Assembly: GCA_028711115.1 (NCBI GenBank)
Contig: JAQTSV010000001.1
Span: forward strand, 1,304,928 to 1,368,927
Direction: 5' to 3'
Length of the DNA stretch: 64,000 nucleotides
From: Candidatus Omnitrophota bacterium
Lineage (GTDB): Bacteria; Omnitrophota; Gorgyraeia; Velamenicoccales; JABMQK01
A model generated the notes under the pieces. It had not been told where the DNA came from, made no database searches, and saw nothing but the letters and a program-made list of their open reading frames with translations. Numbering within the stretch: position 1 is the first letter of the stretch; each line of letters starts with the position of its first letter. A program made the translations under genes and the position numbers. Shown piece after piece: positions 7,170 through 39,947 of the stretch.

Positions 7170-8399
7170 TTATTTTAGGTAATGGCCTAATTTGGTTTTT
7201 TTTGTCTCAAGGTATTTCTTATTTATCTTATTTGCGGGAATATCCAAAGGTATGCGCTCGGAAATATGCAAGCCATAGCCTTCCAATCCCACAACTTTTT
7301 TAGGATTATTGGTAAGTAACCTAATATTTTTTATTCCTAAATCCGCCAATATCTGGGCGCCGATGCCATAATCCCTTAAATCAGCCTCAAAACCCAACGC
7401 CTCATTCGCCTCGACGGTATCAAGGCCTTTGTCCTGCAAATTATAAGCGCGTATTTTATTGATAAGTCCTATCCCTCTTCCTTCCTGGCTCATATATAGA
7501 ATAACTCCCTTGCCTTCCTTACCGATTAATTCCAAAGCCTTTTTTAACTGCGTGCCGCAATCGCATCTCAATGAACCAAAAACATCTCCGGTCAAACACT
7601 CCGAATGCACCCTTACCATAACGGGTTTCTGTTCTTTTCTTATCTCCTCTTCATTTCCTAAAACTAAAGCGATATGATTAAGTTTATCTATGGAAGATTC
7701 ATAAACCAGCATCTGGAATTCGCCGAATTCAGTGGGAAGCGATGCCCTGGTAATCCTTTTTACAAGCATTTCTTTTTTGCGGCGGAATTCAATCAAATCC
7801 TCTATGGAACAAATCTTTAAATTGTGATTTTGGGAAAATTCCAGTAATTGCGGCAACCTAGACATCGAACCATCTTCATTCATAATTTCACAAATTACGC
7901 CAGCAGGATAAAGCCCTGCCAGTTTCATAAAGTCTACCGCCGCCTCTGTATGGCCTGCCCTGACTAAAACTCCGCCGTTTCTTGATTTTAACGGAAAGAT
8001 GTGCCCGGGGCGGATTAAATCATCGGGCTTTGTCTGCGGATTTATCAAAACTTCCACTGTGCGAGCCCGGTCAAAAGCGGAAATTCCCGTGGTAATGCCG
8101 CTGCGCGCATCTACGGAAATCATCCAGGCAGTTGCGTAGGGGTCATAACTGTTGGCGCTCTCCTGAAAATATGGCGACACCATGGGGAAAAGGTTCAATT
8201 CCTTTAATCTTTCTTCCTCCATAGGCACGCATATAAGGCCTCTGGCGTATTTTGCCATAAAATTTATATGCTCCGGCGTGGCGGATGACGCGGGTATAAT
8301 TAAATCACCTTCGTTTTCGCGGTCTTCGTCATCGACTACGATAACCATTTTACCGGCTTTAAGCTCATCTATTATTTCCTGAATGCTGCTAAATTTCAT
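7170..8399 (-). CDS. ribBA: Bifunctional 3,4-dihydroxy-2-butanone-4-phosphate synthase / GTP cyclohydrolase II
   Basis: [11 protein letters not shown] (DHBP synthase) and [21 protein letters not shown] (GCH II zinc site). AAGGAGA Shine-Dalgarno upstream. Confidence 0.95.
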
Positions 8400-8412
8400 A
8401 ACCAGTCTCCTT

Positions 8413-8447
8413 AAAATAAAAAATCCCGAAGATAACCATCGGGATTA
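8413..8447 (-). terminator. Riboswitch expression-platform intrinsic terminator
   Basis: AAUCCCGA-UGGUUAUC-UUCGGGAUU followed by UUUUAUUUU, located between the aptamer and the ribBA Shine-Dalgarno. Confidence 0.8.
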
Positions 8448-8467
8448 AATTTCTCCTGCTAAAAATT

Positions 8468-8632
8468 CTTTCTGCCCTCTCCCATCTAGACTTTTCGCCA
8501 AGTAAACTTAGCGACTCCGTTTTTCACGGAGACTATTGGCCCAAGAATTACACTTGGTCAATCCGCCGTTACAACTTTGGCGGACTCGTAGGCTTTCACT
8601 ACCAGTCAGGAATCACACCTGATCCCGAAGGT
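8468..8632 (-). promoter_or_regulatory. FMN riboswitch (RFN element) aptamer
   Basis: The minus strand reads CUUCGGGAUCAGGUGUGAUUCCUGACUGGUAGU...AGCCUACGAGUC...GGAUUGACCAAGUGUAAUUCUUGGGCCAAUAGU...AGUCUAGAUGGGAGAGG. This matches the conserved RFN core blocks and lies upstream of ribBA. Confidence 0.9.
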
Positions 8633-8660
8633 TATTTTAATTTATACCAAAAGATTATAT

Positions 8661-29618: not shown

Positions 29619-29742
29619 TGGCGCCGAATTACATTAATTCGGCATCCGCCATTGAATTTATTAATGAAATTCTTAAGGTTACGGCGCTGGGCTACGCTAG
29701 CCCAGCATCCGTTAAAACTTTCATTAATGAAAGTTTTAACGG
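29619..29742 (-). repeat. tRNA-trailer hairpin array R1 (four REP-like hairpins, 3' of tRNA-Ser GCT)
   Basis: Four hairpins are present. (1) GCGCCGAATTA-CAT-TAATTCGGCATCCGC. (2) A degenerate CCGCCATTGAATT..AATGAAATTC unit. (3) GCTGGGCTA-CGC-TAGCCCAGC. (4) CCGTTAAAACTTTCATTAATGAAAGTTTTAACGG, which overlaps the tRNA 3' end. Confidence 0.8.
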
Positions 29743-29828
29743 AGAGGTCGGGATTCGAACCCGAGAGTCCAGTTGCCCAGACTAACTGCTTAGCAGGCAG
29801 CTGCTATCAGCCACTCAGCCACCTCTCC
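29740..29828 (-). tRNA. tRNA-Ser (anticodon GCT), no encoded CCA
   Basis: GGAGAGGTGGCTGAGTGGCTGATAGCAGCTGCCTGCTAAGCAGT..., a long variable arm, then GGGTTCGAATCCCGACCTCTCCG. Confidence 0.9.
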
Positions 29829-29850: not shown

Positions 29851-29890
29851 GATCTCGAGTCCCGCCACTTATCTTGGCGGACGAAAGATC
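29851..29890 (-). repeat. Solo CCGCCA/TGGCGG hairpin between tadA and tRNA-Ser(GCT)
   Basis: GTCCCGCCA-CTTATCT-TGGCGGAC (29859-29882) nested in a GATCT...AGATC outer stem. The stem family is the same as hairpin B of the tRNA 5' cassettes. Confidence 0.7.
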
Positions 29891-29901
29891 TTAAACGCGA
29901 A

Positions 29902-30381
29902 TTAATTATGGGTAGCTACCTTCTGCCGTTTTCTCAGAAAAAACTCTTTTATCAACAAAGAACACTCTTTTTCCAAAACGCCTGTTTTTACCTGCAGGCG
30001 ATGATTAAGTTTTTTATTATTTATCAAATTTATAACAGAACCACAGGCGCCGGTTTTAGGATCAACTGCGCCGTATACAATCTTTTTTATGCGGGAGAGC
30101 ACCAATGCGCCCGCACACATACTACACGGCTCAATTGTAACATAAATTGTACAGTCTAACAACCATTTATTACGTAAAAAGTTGCAGGCCTCTGTCAAAA
30201 CTAACATCTCTGCGTGCGCCGTGGGATCTTTAAGCATCTCTACCTGATTATACGCCCTGGCAATGATTTTATTTTTATGCACAACCACTGCCCCGACGGG
30301 AACTTCATCCAGGCTAAATGCCTTTTGGGCCTCTCTCATCGCTTCCTTCATGAAAAATGAATCGTTTTTGAGTCCTAGCAT
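29902..30381 (-). CDS. tadA: tRNA-specific adenosine deaminase TadA
   Basis: HAEMLVL and PCSMCAGAL zinc motifs; 159 aa. Confidence 0.9.
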   Translation of the reverse strand: MLGLKNDSFFMKEAMREAQKAFSLDEVPVGAVVVHKNKIIARAYNQVEMLKDPTAHAEMLVLTEACNFLRNKWLLDCTIYVTIEPCSMCAGALVLSRIKKIVYGAVDPKTGACGSVINLINNKKLNHRLQVKTGVLEKECSLLIKEFFLRKRQKVATHN

Positions 30382-30432
30382 TGCATATTTACCTTATCTA
30401 AACTTATTTTTTGTCTGTTTCTAAATTAAAAA

Positions 30433-30506
30433 TGCGCCTGGCTGGACTCGAACCAGCAACAACTAGTTCCGTAGACTAGTGCTCTATCCAATTGAGCCAC
30501 AGGCGC
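30433..30506 (-). tRNA. tRNA-Arg (anticodon ACG), no encoded CCA
   Basis: GCGCCTGTGGCTCAATTGGATAGAGCACTAGTCTACGGAACTAG...GGTTCGAGTCCAGCCAGGCGCA. Confidence 0.9.
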
Positions 30507-30553
30507 ATCTATTAAATCAACTTTTATTCTATTTTTATCTTTAATCAAAATAA

Positions 30554-30820: not shown

Positions 30821-30885
30821 AATTGCAGAGAGTAAATTAGCATACTTTAGTGATTAAAACAAGGAAGAAAACAAAAAAAGCAATA

Positions 30886-30970
30886 ACTGCGCTAGGCTAC
30901 ATTAGCCCAGTATCCGAACGGTCCCGAAACACATTGTTTCGGCATCCGTCATTAATTTTATTTTTGAATG
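30886..30970 (-). repeat. Orphan tRNA-trailer hairpin array R2 (no adjacent tRNA)
   Basis: GCGCTAGGCTA-CAT-TAGCCCAGTATCCG, then CCCGAAACA-CAT-TGTTTCGGCATCCG, then a decayed TCATTAAT unit. The module order matches R3, but no tRNA follows. Confidence 0.75.
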
Positions 30971-32863: not shown

Positions 32864-32958
32864 AACGGCGCTGGGCTACATTAGCCCGGCATCCGAACGG
32901 CGCCGAAACACATTGTTTCGGCATCCGTTAAGTTTTTCATTAATGAAAAACTTAACGG
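32864..32958 (-). repeat. tRNA-trailer hairpin array R3 (3' of tRNA-Ser GGA)
   Basis: The minus strand reads CCGTTAAGTTTTTCATTAATGAAAAACTTAACGG, then ATGCCGAAACA-ATG-TGTTTCGGCGCCG, then TTCGGATGCCGGGCTA-ATG-TAGCCCAGCGCCG. It ends 12 nt before the kinase ATG. Confidence 0.8.
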
Positions 32959-33042
32959 AGAGGCAGGGATTCGAACCCTGGGTAGCCTTACGACTACACA
33001 TGCTCTCCAGGCATGCCGATTAAACCGCTCTCGCACCTCTCC
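32956..33042 (-). tRNA. tRNA-Ser (anticodon GGA), no encoded CCA
   Basis: GGAGAGGTGCGAGAGCGGTTTAATCGGCATGCCTGGAGAGCATG..., a long variable arm, then GGGTTCGAATCCCTGCCTCTCCG. Confidence 0.9.
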
Positions 33043-33137
33043 AAAAATTCAATTACACAGAACAACCGACCGCCATTAAAGATTCGGCGGTCGTCCGCCA
33101 ACTTATTAGTGGCGGACGCTCTCGCACCTCTCCAAAA
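33026..33137 (-). repeat. tRNA 5' cassette E1: a 70-nt two-hairpin element flanked by a 21-nt direct duplication of the tRNA-Ser(GGA) 5' end
   Basis: 33026-33046 and 33117-33137 are both cgctctcgcacctctccaaaa, which is tRNA positions +17 to -4. The interior 33047-33116 carries the hairpins GACCGCC..GGCGGTC and GTCCGCCA..TGGCGGAC. Confidence 0.85.
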
Positions 33138-34583: not shown

Positions 34584-34646
34584 GCGGATGCCGAATTACA
34601 TTAATTCGGCATCCGCCATTGAATTCATTAATGAATTCAATGGCGG
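34584..34646 (-). repeat. tRNA-trailer hairpin array R4 (3' of tRNA-Ser CGA)
   Basis: GCGGATGCCGAATT-ACATT-AATTCGGCATCCGC (34584-34616) overlaps the perfect 34-nt palindrome CCGCCATTGAATTCATTAATGAATTCAATGGCGG (34613-34646) by 4 nt. The palindrome includes the tRNA CCGCCA 3' end. Confidence 0.85.
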
Positions 34647-34728
34647 AAGGAGCAGGATTCGAACCTGCGAGGCCTTGCGACCTGGACGCTTTCGAGGCGT
34701 CTGGATTCAACCGCTCTCCCATCCTTCC
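34641..34728 (-). tRNA. tRNA-Ser (anticodon CGA), CCA encoded
   Basis: GGAAGGATGGGAGAGCGGTTGAATCCAGACGCCTCGAAAGCGTC..., a long variable arm, then GGTTCGAATCCTGCTCCTTCCGCCA. Confidence 0.9.
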
Positions 34729-34838: not shown

Positions 34839-34931
34839 AATAATTCAATTTTACAGAACAACCGACCGCCATTAAAAATTCGGCGGTCGTCCGCCAACTT
34901 ATTAGTGGCGGACGCTCTGCCACGCCTCCAA
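34822..34931 (-). repeat. tRNA 5' cassette E2: a 72-nt two-hairpin element flanked by a 19-nt direct duplication of the tRNA-Ser(TGA) 5' end
   Basis: 34822-34840 and 34913-34931 are both cgctctgccacgcctccaa. The interior matches E1 at 67 of 70 positions. Confidence 0.85.
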
Positions 34932-36872: not shown

Positions 36873-38330
36873 CTAGCCTTTTATCACTCCGAGCGGCCTC
36901 ATCTTGCAGACCTTCCTGGAAATTCCGGCGCGCTCAACCACATTTACCACATCATTTATATTCTTGTAAGCAGCAGGCGCTTCTTCTACAAGCGTTTCCC
37001 TGCTTGAGGCTTTAACTGTTATTCCTTTTGATTCTAATTCCTCTAATAAACTTATGGCGTTAAACGACCTTGTGGCTGCGGAACGCGATTTTAATCTGCC
37101 TGCGCCATGGCATGTGGAATAAAAAGTTTCTTTTGCCTTCTCTGTTCCGACAAGTAAATATGAATTCCTTCCCATATCTCCGGGAATTATTACCGGCTGT
37201 CCGTAATTTTTATATTTTTCTGGCAAAGCCGGATGATTCGGGCCCAGCGCCCTGGTCGCGCCTTTTCTATGAACGCAAACTTTCTTTTTCTTTCCGTTTA
37301 CTTCACAAGTCTCAATTTTGGCAATGTTATGGGCTACGTCATAAACCAAAGACATCCCCATATTCTGCCAGGATTTGTTAAACACGCGCTCAAAAGCCAG
37401 GCGCGTCAAATGCATAAGGCACTGGCGGTTTGCCCAGGCGTAATTTGCCGCCGCGCGCATGGCAGAAAGATACTCTTTTCCTTCTTCTGATTCTACAGGA
37501 GCGCAAGCCAATTGTCTATCAGGAACATTAATATTGTATTTGGATAAACAATGAATCATCTTCTTTACGTAATCCTCGCAAACCTGATAACCCAAGCCGC
37601 GCGAACCTGAGTGAATCATTACAGTAATCTGTCCTTCTGCCACGCCGAAAACATTCGCTGTTTCTTTATCGTAAATTTCTTCTACAACCTGGACTTCTAA
37701 AAAATGATTTCCCGAACCCAAAGTGCCGGATTGCGCCTTGCCGCGCTCATACGCCCTGTCTGAAACAGCGTCCGTAGCCGCGCCGCTGATTGCGCCTTCT
37801 TCTTCGCAATAAGTCAAATCATCCTGCGTGCCATAACCTTGCTCCACTGCCCAACGCGCGCCTTTTATTAAGATTTCTTTCTCTTCTCTTGCAGAAACTT
37901 TTATGTCGCCTTTGGAACCTAATCCCGAAGGAACATCATTAAATAAAACATAAACCAAATCTTTTATCTTATTTTTTATTTCGCTAAATAAAAGGTTCGT
38001 GCGCACCAAACGCACGCCGCAATTTATGTCAAAACCAACCCCGCCGGGAGAAATCACACCATTGTTTTCAATGTCTGTCGCCGCCACGCCGCCGATGGGA
38101 AAACCATATCCCCAGTGTATGTCCGGCATGGCCAAAGAATTAGAAACAATCCCCGGAAGAAACGCGACATTGGCAACCTGCTCCGCGGCTTTGTCGTGGC
38201 GAATATCAGCCAGGAGTTTTTCGTCGGCGTAAATTACGCCGTCGGTGCGCATGCCCGGTTTATAACTTTTTGGTATACGCCACCTGACATCATCTATTCT
38301 TTCCAACGGGCCTTGCCAAAGATCTGCCAT
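36873..38330 (-). CDS. rtcB: RNA-splicing ligase RtcB
   Basis: Conserved GVGFDINCGVR, GSGNHF, HSGSRGLG and HGAGR motifs; 485 aa. Confidence 0.95.
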   Translation of the reverse strand: MADLWQGPLERIDDVRWRIPKSYKPGMRTDGVIYADEKLLADIRHDKAAEQVANVAFLPGIVSNSLAMPDIHWGYGFPIGGVAATDIENNGVISPGGVGFDINCGVRLVRTNLLFSEIKNKIKDLVYVLFNDVPSGLGSKGDIKVSAREEKEILIKGARWAVEQGYGTQDDLTYCEEEGAISGAATDAVSDRAYERGKAQSGTLGSGNHFLEVQVVEEIYDKETANVFGVAEGQITVMIHSGSRGLGYQVCEDYVKKMIHCLSKYNINVPDRQLACAPVESEEGKEYLSAMRAAANYAWANRQCLMHLTRLAFERVFNKSWQNMGMSLVYDVAHNIAKIETCEVNGKKKKVCVHRKGATRALGPNHPALPEKYKNYGQPVIIPGDMGRNSYLLVGTEKAKETFYSTCHGAGRLKSRSAATRSFNAISLLEELESKGITVKASSRETLVEEAPAAYKNINDVVNVVERAGISRKVCKMRPLGVIKG

Positions 38331-38338
38331 ATAAAATC

Positions 38339-38755
38339 CTATGTGTCAAAAATAATTCTTGCCTCTAAGCCATCCTGAGTCTCTTTAATTTCCAGCTCGT
38401 GATAAGTTGCGGCTTTTACCTCGGATAAAATTTTATGCTTTGCCGAATCCAGGTTTTCTCCGTGGACTTCGGCGTTTAATTCTTTATCGCTAATTTTATT
38501 TATCTTAAATTCTTTGGGAATGAAATTGCGGGCTGAAAATTGGAATATCAGTTCGTTTAACCAGGAAATCAAAAGCTCTTCCCTGTTATCGTCTTCTAAA
38601 TTAACGCTTATTTTATCGCTTGCCTGGACCTTATTTAAATCCGTGATTAAACTAAACAAACCTTTTGCGGCATTTATAAAAAGTTCTTTTGAGTCTTTGG
38701 CGTAAATCTTAAGGCCTATGTCCGCCGTGTGCTCAAAGGTCTCGAACTTTTTCAT
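38339..38755 (-). CDS. Archease (RtcB activator)
   Basis: N-terminal FEHTADIGLKIYA and the correct length (138 aa). Lies directly upstream of rtcB. Confidence 0.85.
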   Translation of the reverse strand: MKKFETFEHTADIGLKIYAKDSKELFINAAKGLFSLITDLNKVQASDKISVNLEDDNREELLISWLNELIFQFSARNFIPKEFKINKISDKELNAEVHGENLDSAKHKILSEVKAATYHELEIKETQDGLEARIIFDT

Positions 38756-38767
38756 ATAAGGAATTTA

Positions 38768-38840
38768 TGGGCCATGTAGGAGTCGAACCTACGACCTTGA
38801 CATTAAGAGTGTCCTGCTCTACCGATTGAGCTAATGGCCC
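38768..38840 (-). tRNA. tRNA-Lys (anticodon CTT), no encoded CCA
   Basis: GGGCCATTAGCTCAATCGGTAGAGCAGGACACTCTTAATGTCAAGGTCGTAGGTTCGACTCCTACATGGCCCA. Confidence 0.9.
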
Positions 38841-38912
38841 GATTTTTATCTATACGCCATAAGCGAATCCGCCGATGTTTAGTGGCGGAGAGCTAATGAC
38901 ACGGAATTTTTA
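38828..38912 (-). repeat. tRNA 5' cassette E3 (decayed): a single CCGCC hairpin flanked by a diverged duplication of the tRNA-Lys 5' end
   Basis: Proximal gagctaatggcccgattttta (38828-38848) compared with distal gagctaatgacacggaattttta (38890-38912). The interior holds TCCGCC-ACTAAACATC-GGCGGA. Confidence 0.7.
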
Positions 38913-38921
38913 AGTTTGATT

Positions 38922-38950
38922 ATTCTACCGTAAAAATGTGGAATTTGCAA
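38922..38950 (-). promoter_or_regulatory. Sigma70-like promoter upstream of the E3 / tRNA-Lys / archease-rtcB unit
   Basis: On the minus strand, TTGCAA (38950-38945), a 17-nt spacer, then TAGAAT (38927-38922). Confidence 0.55.
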
Positions 38951-39011
38951 TATGCAAAATATTACCCACGTAAGAACTATCTTCCAGAAGAGAACGATCC
39001 CCATCTTTCTA

Positions 39012-39947
39012 TTATTCAAGATTTAGAGGAAAAAATAATTCTGTCTTTTGTAGACTCGCTTTTCCTGTGGCATCGGTAATCTTTTCCCAGCGCAAGATTT
39101 TTAAATTTACGCTTTTCTTATTCTTTGCTAAAGTAGTTAATTCATTAGGATCTTTTACAGACTGGCCGTCTACTTCCAAAATTATATCCAGAAAACGCAA
39201 ACCAATCTTCTCTGCAGGGCTACCTACATATACATCATAAATCAAAAGACCGGTTCCCGACTGGAGCGCAAGCTCTGCTGACTGCTCCTGCTTTAGCGGA
39301 AAAACTGTAAAACCGTATACCATAGAACTTATGATGCGGCCTTGCTCTTTACTCAAGGTAGCAATAGCATTACCCAATAGTTTGGCTGTTTTCTCATTAG
39401 TAACACGCAGGTCAACAGTATTGCCATCATCCAGACGAACCATTAGTTGCCATGGAAATGGACAACTCGGATCAGCCAAAGGATAATTAAAAAGTCCTAA
39501 CGAGGCAACCATGGCAAAAGGAATCACAAATGCCCCTTCATACTGACTAGTATCAGTGTGTGTCTGATAAGACCCACCGTAATAAGGCACATAATTCAAA
39601 CCGACGAAATATCCTCCGCTGTTCGGAACGTATTGGGAATGCTGCACGGCCTCGGTCCACTCCCATTTTGCACGCAAGCCATATTTATCCAGATCAAATG
39701 TCTTAAAATGCTTTCCAAATGTCCCCTTACTAGCCCCAACAAAACTCTCTTGGAGATTTTTTAAGGTTCCCATTGCCTCTTCCGCGCTTGATAGTATCCC
39801 CGGACGATACCAATACCCTTTTGTATAATAGTTTGGGCTCGGCCAAACAGATTTAGCCGGTTGCGTTTGTTCCGTAAATAGGTAATCTAACGTAGCGCAC
39901 CCACTGACAAATACCGCCATAAATAATAAAACGACTATTTTTCTCAT
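39012..39947 (-). CDS. Lipoprotein with a C-terminal PDZ domain
   Basis: Lipobox FVSGC at residues 13-17 and a PDZ-like GSPAEKIGLRFLDIILEVDGQSV. The N-terminal ~200 aa are unassignable. Confidence 0.6.
   Translation of the reverse strand: MRKIVVLLFMAVFVSGCATLDYLFTEQTQPAKSVWPSPNYYTKGYWYRPGILSSAEEAMGTLKNLQESFVGASKGTFGKHFKTFDLDKYGLRAKWEWTEAVQHSQYVPNSGGYFVGLNYVPYYGGSYQTHTDTSQYEGAFVIPFAMVASLGLFNYPLADPSCPFPWQLMVRLDDGNTVDLRVTNEKTAKLLGNAIATLSKEQGRIISSMVYGFTVFPLKQEQSAELALQSGTGLLIYDVYVGSPAEKIGLRFLDIILEVDGQSVKDPNELTTLAKNKKSVNLKILRWEKITDATGKASLQKTELFFPLNLE

Follow-up and report, generated by a model that had tools for sequence, protein, structure and literature searches.

We analysed a 64-kb stretch of a Candidatus Omnitrophota genome (64,000 nt in full, hereafter the window) in which the single tRNA-Lys(CTT) gene is preceded by a partial copy of its own 5′ end, a G+C-rich hairpin and a promoter that lies away from the gene. 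The genes at issue are all on the minus strand. The intact, functional tRNA-Lys(CTT) copy occupies 38768–38840 (Rfam, 70.5 bits); a TPR protein and a PDZ protein are encoded upstream (39012–39947), and downstream lie archease (38339–38755) and RtcB (36873–38330), both recognized by Pfam and both used as synteny anchors. Archease starts 12 nt past the tRNA-Lys 3′ end, which makes co-transcription of the two genes likely.

Read on the minus strand from the PDZ gene towards the tRNA, the spacer holds the promoter TTGCAA-17-TAGAAT (38922–38950, about 75 nt from the mature 5′ end), 18 nt, CGTGTCATTAGCTC, the hairpin TCCGCC-ACTAAACATC-GGCGGA, TTCGCTTATGGCGTATAGATAAAAATC and finally GGGCCATTAGCTCAATCGG, where the tRNA starts. 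The tRNA 5′ end with its flank (gagctaatggcccgattttta, 38828–38848) has a distal counterpart (gagctaatgacacggaattttta, 38890–38912) from which it is separated by 41 nt (38849–38889); these coordinates and the spacing, given in an earlier note on this DNA, proved exact when checked against the sequence. Within the partial copy (38890–38912), nt 5–13 of the tRNA (CATTAGCTC) are intact, nt 1–4 now read CGTGT, and the flank TAAAAATTC precedes them. A direct repeat therefore flanks the insert, formed by the 13-nt copy at 38890–38903, of which 9 nt are intact, and by nt 1–13 of the intact gene. The core hairpin (TCCGCC-N10-GGCGGA, 38868–38889) makes up the distal 22 nt of the 41-nt spacer and borders directly on the partial copy, the junction being at D-loop position 13/14 of the tRNA. 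It is followed by TTC and GCTTATGGC (38856–38867), an inverted copy of tRNA nt 3–11 that in RNA folds pairs with the partial copy and extends the hairpin, and then by an A/T-rich stretch, GTATAGATAAAAATC (38841–38855), which is the new 5′ flank of the functional gene and is conserved among the carriers described below. The insert measures 49 nt, hairpin plus 27-nt tail, and has no terminal inverted repeats. Across 38700–39020, the tRNA was the sole Rfam match at E < 0.001.

When a 21-nt probe made up of 8 nt of flank and tRNA nt 1–13 was aligned locally to the 163-nt upstream spacer, it scored 14, compared with a mean of 6.1 (sd 1.06) for shuffles (P ~2e-4). The pattern TCCGCC-N8–14-GGCGGA occurs four times in the window, where 0.02 occurrences are expected, and three of the four adjoin partial tRNA copies, namely the one at tRNA-Lys and those in two elements at tRNA-Ser genes, E1 (34890–34912) and E2 (33094–33116). 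The pattern scan thus bore out the earlier claim that the same TCCGCC...GGCGGA hairpin stands beside the duplicated block at all three places.

Promoter-like sites in the region show no excess over shuffled sequence (40 vs 38.7), so the promoter call rests on homology and not on the scan: the TTGCAA and TAGAAT of the window align onto the −35 and −10 boxes of relatives. The promoter sits, as had been proposed, where an uninterrupted tRNA-Lys would have one, in register with the conserved promoter block of those relatives. Between the partial copy and the gene, no minus-strand promoter-like site was scored and the scan found no terminator-like site; the Lys hairpin has no U-tract and was not scored as a terminator. 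We also considered and rejected a promoter inside the insert, as no minus-strand site was scored at 38841–38889 and the candidates TATAGA and TAGATA lack the invariant final T.

Empty and filled sites in relatives

Relatives were obtained by an archease protein search (64–72% identity) and their contigs retrieved; an archease scan of the species-representative genome collection yielded only distant relatives, at ≤45% identity. The relatives keep tRNA-Lys, archease, RtcB, SerRS, a 222-aa protein and the tRNA-Ser genes in synteny, and the rtcB neighbourhood is conserved with or without the insertion. Three loci, L024, L027 and L034, present an empty site, in which ttctaTTGAG[AC]-17-TATAATatatt, 33–36 nt and an uninterrupted tRNA-Lys follow one another, and the tRNA-Lys of the distant L005 is also uninterrupted. 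The site is filled in the window, L021, L031 and L155. L021 has the same promoter block, then a perfect GGGCCATTAGCTC (13/13), TCCGCTACTAAAACTTTGGCGGA, TTCGCTTGTGGCAGATAGATAAAATTA and the gene, an arrangement found again in L022 and L023 from two further metagenome samples; L155 reads GAGCCATTAGCTC, TCCGCCACTAAAGAGTTGGCGGA, TTCGCTAATAGCAGGTAGATAAAAATA, with one mismatch in the partial copy, and L031 has a more decayed partial copy and a different inner hairpin.

Because the window boxes align with the promoter of the relatives, the partial copy marks the ancestral position of the tRNA 5′ end, and the rest, up to the present gene, is extra. The insertion model of the earlier note is thereby supported, since the orthologous tRNA-Lys/archease/rtcB loci show the uninterrupted state behind the same promoter block. 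Its idea of a duplicated target holds in that nt 1–13 are duplicated, but a target duplication of fixed stagger is unlikely, as the lengths vary between events. An archaeal-type intron spliced by RtcB and archease was likewise considered and set aside: no bulge-helix-bulge is evident, the functional genes are uninterrupted, and the rtcB context is independent of the insertion.

Pairing between the insert and the partial copy

The leader folds at −19 kcal/mol (z = −3.15), and RNA folding gave the same leader shape in the window, L021, L031 and the unrelated L040. In this shape, nt 3–11 of the partial copy pair with the first 9 tail nt after TTC, which are GCTTATGGC in the window and GCTAATGGC, an exact complement, in the consensus. 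Over all 15 pairs in a four-lineage alignment, 91% of cells are paired, compared with 26–53% when the partners are slid; for the 9-pair outer helix the figure is 89% across the four lineages. When the 149-nt precursor is folded in full, its leader hairpin and tRNA cloverleaf are separate domains. We conclude that the extended stem is a real, retained feature of the insert, without claiming selection, and that the tail stretch probably originated as an inverted copy of the target. At first all substitutions seemed to preserve pairs, which suggested selection on the outer stem, but this impression fell when L155 was added; the count gives no significant covariation.

Of the window's partial copy, the 9 nt that form part of the stem have stayed intact and 4–5 nt beyond it are changed. 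The expectation that the distal copy would be free to decay therefore fits its first 4–5 nt and not the remainder, which is paired with the tail in all four lineages.

Age of the insertion and independent events

In neighbour-joining trees of archease, SerRS and the 222-aa protein, and of archease and RtcB, the window, L155, L021 and L031 form one clade, sister to the empty-site lineages; the internal branch is short, and the grouping of the four carriers is not strongly supported. Proteins within the carrier clade are 72–89% identical, depending on the pair and the protein set. On these sequence comparisons, a single old insertion in the carrier clade is the simplest reading.

Outside this clade, L156 has in the same place GGGCCATTAGCT (12/13), two TCCCGCC..GGCGGGA hairpins, 67 nt and the gene, and its second hairpin module is homologous to an insert in the tRNA-Ser(GGA) gene of L021. 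Since L156 lies outside the clade and has a different insert, the tRNA-Lys D-loop junction was hit independently, at least twice. With E1 and E2, the Lys element has in common only the hairpin head TCCGCCACTAA..GGCGGA, and it has neither their second hairpin nor their spacer. What had been described as a decayed third copy is thus a related event, but an older, clade-wide insertion that shares this head with E1/E2 and is not their sibling copy.

Recurrence of the architecture at other tRNA genes

The earlier view that the phenomenon is not restricted to tRNA-Ser is extended by cases at tRNA-Thr, -Asn, -Gln, -Arg, -Met and -Leu. Metagenome contigs scanned for TCCGCYACTAA-N4–7-GGCGGA gave at least 120 matching stretches. 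Among the matches listed, a minority are chance matches in coding sequence and the rest are mostly intergenic, often with a second similar hairpin after them; a tRNA lies within 400 nt in 14 of the 121 matches listed, where ~2% would be expected on an estimate from typical tRNA density. At the tRNA-Thr(CGT) gene of L040, TTGACT-17-TATAAT is followed by 12 nt, GCCGATGTAGCTC (13 nt), the same hairpin, TTCGCTATAAAATATTATT with its TTCGCT tail, and the gene. Because the TTCGCT tail is found also at this tRNA-Thr, it belongs to the element. The window architecture is also clean at tRNA-Thr(GGT) in L042 and tRNA-Ser(TGA) in L063, and tRNA-Gln in L046 provides a 3′-side case whose copy begins in the T-loop.

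A blind search with 12-mers of tRNA ends near all 98 tRNAs in the collected sequence revealed more partial 5′ copies, in L024 (Arg), L075 (twice), L095 and L135, each with a hairpin immediately after it that differs in inner sequence and is mostly of the TCC..GGA form. Hairpins also interrupt pseudo-tRNA fragments within D-, anticodon- or T-loops (L024, L027, L041, L095, L097), and no junction inside a tRNA stem was seen among the loci inspected. By event, the duplicated lengths are 12, 13, 15, 17, 20, 21, 38 and ~65 nt, with one boundary always in a loop. Given this variation, a fixed-stagger transposase is unlikely and an incoming segment with a replacement gene end fits better; a transposase- or casposase-like target-site duplication of fixed stagger was rejected in view of lengths from 12 to ~65 nt.

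Some of these loci are more complex. The 8040–8620 interval of L024 contains tRNA-Arg(TCG) debris, in which hairpins divide one pseudo-gene at three points, the start of the D-loop, its end and the anticodon loop, and an older tRNA-Arg(TCG) has its D-loop interrupted by 161 nt that hold a complete, different tRNA-Arg(TCG). In L021 (14220–14620), two tandem units precede a tRNA-Ser(CGA) that differs in sequence from their 17-nt fragment; each unit comprises a 17-nt 5′ fragment of a tRNA-Ser(CGA) of the window/L031 type, an E-type two-hairpin insert, a 17-nt flank and 21 nt of the different tRNA-Ser(CGA). The resident tRNA-Ser(CGA) of L021 has evidently been replaced by an incoming allele. Some 80–130 nt downstream of tRNA-Arg(TCG) in L027 (8683–8758) lies a 3′ tRNA-Arg(TCG) fragment with a 45-nt hairpin, TCCTTCGA..TCGAAGGA, in its anticodon loop, flanked by the 5-nt direct repeat CGGAA.

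An integrase element and GIY-YIG genes at tRNA loci

In L030 (4325–9989), the promoter block and nt 1–38 of tRNA-Lys(CTT) are followed by a 5.5-kb element and then by a complete tRNA-Lys. The element ends in a tyrosine integrase gene (with one in-frame stop) directly before the complete gene; it joins tRNA-Lys at the anticodon loop, without a hairpin there. It shows that 5′-side duplication with a stranded promoter is an established outcome in the lineage.

Other inserts contain an open reading frame (ORF) for a GIY-YIG protein. At tRNA-Ser(TGA) of L030, GGAGGCGTGGCAGAG, a 15-nt copy, is followed by two hairpins, an 84-aa GIY-YIG ORF, the hairpin gagatctctcg-TCCGTCA..TGGCGGA-ctcgagatcc and the gene; at tRNA-Asn of L135, CCCCGGTAGCTC, a 13-nt copy, is followed by CCGCC..GGCGGA TCCGCC..GGCGGA and a 79-aa GIY-YIG ORF that reaches the gene. 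In L155, a 93-aa GIY-YIG ORF between tRNA-Lys and archease is flanked by a ~65-nt direct repeat that starts in the T-loop, and in L021 and L027 GIY-YIG ORFs closely precede tRNA-Ser(GGA). When the six-frame ORFs of the collected loci were all searched with a profile, nine GIY-YIG genes came to light, six of them within 200 nt of a tRNA. The L030, L155 and L135 proteins match only the catalytic domain PF01541 (E-values 1e-15 to 1e-21), and the closest PDB entries to the L155 protein are the UPF0213 structures 1zg2 and 1ywl.

The one viral case of a UPF0213-type gene beside a tRNA, in the IMG/VR contig L194 (1–700), has the GIY-YIG ORF between a T-loop-truncated tRNA fragment and a complete tRNA-Pro, with several repeated 3′ tRNA fragments nearby. 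RtcB has an intein in two relatives, L024 (10691–13384) and L032 (10432–13419); Pfam Intein_splicing matched in both and LAGLIDADG_3 faintly in L024 only, and the RtcB of the window has no intein.

Elements at the tRNA-Ser genes of the window

Beyond RtcB, the gene order in the window is SerRS, a 224-aa protein, tRNA-Ser(TGA), tRNA-Ser(CGA), a T2SSE ATPase and tRNA-Ser(GGA), and farther on tRNA-Arg(ACG), TadA and tRNA-Ser(GCT). E1 (34839–34929, minus strand) consists of a 17-nt partial copy of tRNA-Ser(TGA) (34913–34929) and a 74-nt two-hairpin insert, and E2 (33043–33133, minus strand) of a 17-nt partial copy of tRNA-Ser(GGA) (33117–33133) and a 74-nt insert. The two inserts are ~95% identical over 74 nt and are absent from tRNA-Ser(TGA) of L021 and L031 and from tRNA-Ser(GGA) of L021, on which grounds we regard E1 and E2 as recent. 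The 5′ arm of the E1 hairpin, TCCGCCA, is identical to the tRNA-Ser 3′ end including CCA. A T-box-like pairing of the TGGCGGA arm with the TCCGCCA end of tRNA-Ser was rejected, since CGGCGGA stands at this place in the Lys copy, the end of tRNA-Lys is CCCA with discriminator A, and T-box features are missing. Upstream of tRNA-Ser(GCT), the extended hairpin gatctttcg-TCCGCCA..TGGCGGG-actcgagatc (29851–29890, minus strand) is the same module as the right end of the L030 GIY-YIG cassette.

An alternative fold is open to E1 and E2: pairing of the 3′ arm of hairpin 1 with the 5′ arm of hairpin 2 gives a third hairpin, TTGGCGGACGACCGCCGA, with ATTTTTAA after it, and the scan scored this as terminator-like. 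The two-hairpin insert can therefore choose between structures in the manner of an attenuator. Behind every tRNA-Ser gene lies a perfect palindrome of 36 nt whose start is inside the tRNA 3′ end (TCCG...CGGA or TCCGCCA...TGGCGGA), in the regions 29686–29743, 32902–32959, 34584–34647 and 30873–30968. After these palindromes comes a second hairpin of a repeated family, GATGCCGAAnnAATGTnnTTCGGC, one copy of which lies behind a protein gene. Of the 18 G+C-rich hairpins that rank strongest in the window, 10 have a tRNA-Ser gene at a distance of 50 nt or less. The TadA gene (29902–30507), which encodes a tRNA adenosine deaminase, lies directly downstream of its substrate tRNA-Arg(ACG), a pairing seen also in L032.

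The fourth match to the hairpin pattern in the window (8562–8584) was suspected to be a hairpin insertion in a flavin mononucleotide (FMN) riboswitch and was ruled out, being the riboswitch's own P3 stem. This riboswitch (8470–8636, minus strand) matches the full Rfam model but has 42 nt, compared with the model's 5 nt, in the terminal loop of its last hairpin, and the extra bases form two small hairpins, CTCCGTGAAAAACGGAG and TCGCTAAGTTTACTTGGCGA.

Interpretation and alternatives

We interpret the Lys feature as the old scar of an insertion into the D-loop-coding part of the single tRNA-Lys(CTT) gene, between nt 13 and nt 14, and probably as an ORF-less cassette relic. The sequence comparisons show the insertion with its duplication, the homology of the promoter, the age of the event and the recurring architecture, whereas the mobilizing enzyme, read-through and any present role of the hairpin are inferred. 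The incoming DNA comprised the G+C-rich TCC..GGA hairpin, a short tail and a replacement for tRNA nt 1–13; because the insert brought this replacement, the downstream tRNA-Lys stayed whole, and the original nt 1–13 and the original promoter were left upstream. Transcription is expected to start from the stranded promoter near 38915 and to pass through the hairpin, archease and rtcB probably being on the same transcript after tRNA-Lys, and RNase P would cut off a structured leader of ~75 nt. The first bases of the leftover fragment are additionally mutated in this genome, and the extended hairpin may sequester those bases of the leftover 5′ fragment that might rival the true 5′ strand in pairing with the acceptor 3′ strand.

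The window has the order partial copy, hairpin, tRNA without an ORF, and L030 and L135 have it with one. We therefore propose that the insert belongs to a family of small modules, either as a member that lacks an ORF or as a remnant. These modules would insert into the loop-coding parts of tRNA genes, and in their complete forms a UPF0213-type GIY-YIG gene, the presumed mobilizing enzyme, would lie between hairpin(s) and tRNA. With the module on the 5′ side, the nuclease gene would come under the tRNA promoter and the tRNA would be released from the 3′ part of the transcript. It is possible, though we offer this as a tentative proposal to which we give somewhat less than even weight, that these loci represent a new class of selfish cassettes in Omnitrophota and other uncultured bacteria, defined by TCC..GGA hairpin(s), a catalytic-domain-only GIY-YIG gene, a replacement tRNA segment that would keep the tRNA functional, entry at the D-, anticodon- or T-loop, capture of the tRNA promoter, and MITE-like (miniature inverted-repeat transposable element) ORF-less leftovers such as 38841–38912 and E1/E2.

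Several observations weigh against our interpretation of the Lys feature. In the stem, significant covariation is absent among the four lineages (n = 4), and two substitutions break pairs (C-A in L155, U-U in the window). In the 64-kb window, the six-frame profile search found no GIY-YIG gene, and tblastn with the L030 integrase gave no match. What connects the ORF-less insert to the GIY-YIG cassettes is common architecture and hairpin stems, with no sequence continuity between them. The apparent association of GIY-YIG genes with tRNAs is inflated because loci were chosen via a tRNA-adjacent gene or hairpin; with tRNA-adjacent UPF0213-like genes in 1 of 36 viral contigs, the association is not general to the UPF0213 family. 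Finally, the D-arm of the functional gene is intact, so that simple homing immunity by disruption of the target site is not obviously applicable.

Fragments and partial copies of tRNA genes at insertion sites are known and have been reviewed for archaea (PMC9897764). Like the tRNA elements of tyrosine integrases, the Lys insert is bounded by a partial tRNA copy, has its junction in a loop-coding position and fits incoming DNA that supplies the displaced segment; unlike them, it is 49 nt long without an integrase, has a hairpin beside the partial copy and has its junction in the D-loop. Integrase elements usually duplicate the 3′ segment of the gene, whereas here it is the 5′ segment, which is why the host promoter was stranded. 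The Lys feature could nevertheless be what remains of such an element, whose attP carried tRNA nt 1–13, which integrated at the D-loop and whose body was then almost wholly lost, leaving attL, the element ends and attR in a cis-mobilizable element (CIME)-like arrangement. L030 has the same logic in the same gene, and a fixed boundary in a tRNA loop combined with a variable outer boundary, as seen here, is reportedly typical of integrase identity blocks. However, the L030 junction is in the anticodon loop and lacks a hairpin, and its integrase has no homologue in the window. The junction at D-loop position 13/14 with duplication of the 5′ part also departs from the anticodon loop, T-loop or 3′ end and 3′ part used by integrases; to our knowledge, D-loop sublocations are not among the known integrase classes. 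Moreover, the tiny form of hairpin and TTCGCT tail recurs at the unrelated tRNA-Thr of L040, which would be unexpected from independent deletions. We consider a deleted integrase element unlikely.

Somewhat less likely again is an origin by tandem duplication of tRNA-Lys, after which the upstream copy would have lost nt 14 to ~60 and gained a hairpin like those of repetitive extragenic palindromes (REP), the tail being a remnant of the T-loop and 3′ acceptor. The tail does contain TTCG and ATGGC in the order of the T-loop and 3′ acceptor strand, the E1 hairpin arm matches a tRNA-Ser 3′ end with its CCA, and pseudo-tRNAs with simple hairpin insertions exist (L024, L095, L097, L041). The inverted complement of nt 3–11 (consensus GCTAATGGC, 9/9) is, however, a better fit to the tail than T-stem plus acceptor, and the TTCGCT tail is shared with a tRNA-Thr case. 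The E2 hairpin has CCA although its tRNA-Ser(GGA) gene encodes none, and the same D-loop junction position is found in independent events and at different tRNAs.

If the leader had instead evolved in place to serve regulation in cis or RNA processing, for example as an attenuator, RNase site or decoy, the resemblance to the tRNA would be functional and not historical. Retention of the block in four lineages whose proteins have diverged to about 72–83% identity, where the surrounding spacer is barely alignable, would agree with this, as would the stable hairpin and the alternative terminator-like hairpin with U-run in E1/E2. We find it improbable all the same, given that sister lineages lack the block, that the core hairpin sequence is replaced in L031, that the Lys hairpin has no Rfam match, no U-tract and no significant covariation, and that the same module occurs at unrelated tRNAs and beside nuclease genes. 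Chance coincidence of the 9-nt match and the hairpin can be dismissed for practical purposes: a lone 9-mer match in an A/T-rich spacer is not rare, but the shuffle test, the perfect 13-mer at the homologous place in L021 and the excess of the hairpin pattern speak decisively against it.

Relation to known systems and significance

Some free-standing homing-endonuclease genes bring along a second copy of the host-gene end that they displace; examples are the GIY-YIG ORF of the Allomyces mitochondrial atp6 gene and T4 SegB, which lies in a tRNA gene cluster. L030, L135 and L155 are like these in having a GIY-YIG gene within a host gene that is saved by a duplicated end, with the displaced fragment alongside. 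They are unlike them in that the targets are bacterial chromosomal tRNA genes, the proteins are of the catalytic-domain-only UPF0213 kind and the window copy has no ORF; homing would here be an analogy drawn from sequence. The hairpins also invite comparison with REP/bacterial interspersed mosaic element (BIME) and MITE-like palindromic repeats (Di Nocera et al. 2013, PMC3733652). As with REP/BIME, they are short, G+C-rich, imperfect palindromes with many metagenome copies, often paired and mostly intergenic. Their head is TCCG and not GTAG or CGTC, however, every true window copy is at a tRNA gene, and their partial duplications are long and variable where those of REP/BIME are absent or short and fixed; no RAYT is known to accompany them, though no search was directed at one. 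A MITE would have terminal inverted repeats and a duplication of fixed length, and an intrinsic terminator would have a U-run, none of which the Lys insert has.

We found no description of such a bacterial arrangement in the literature searched, a limited library. It is unusual that the 5′ part is the one duplicated, that the site is in the D-loop, that the hairpin-only inserts are so small and that catalytic-domain-only GIY-YIG genes are associated with this arrangement. Partial tRNA copies are classic footprints of mobile DNA, and the known cases involve the 3′ part of the gene and kilobase elements with integrases. Scars of the kind described here create long structured tRNA leaders, mislead the annotation of tRNAs and promoters, and mark hot spots of tRNA gene replacement in metagenome-assembled genomes. 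The UPF0213 family is widespread and, as far as we know, has no assigned function; if the link to the GIY-YIG cassettes is true, it would give this family its first proposed role, as a mobile-element nuclease, and would provide an example of a selfish gene that lives inside an essential RNA gene without an intron, by means of a spare gene end and a borrowed tRNA promoter.

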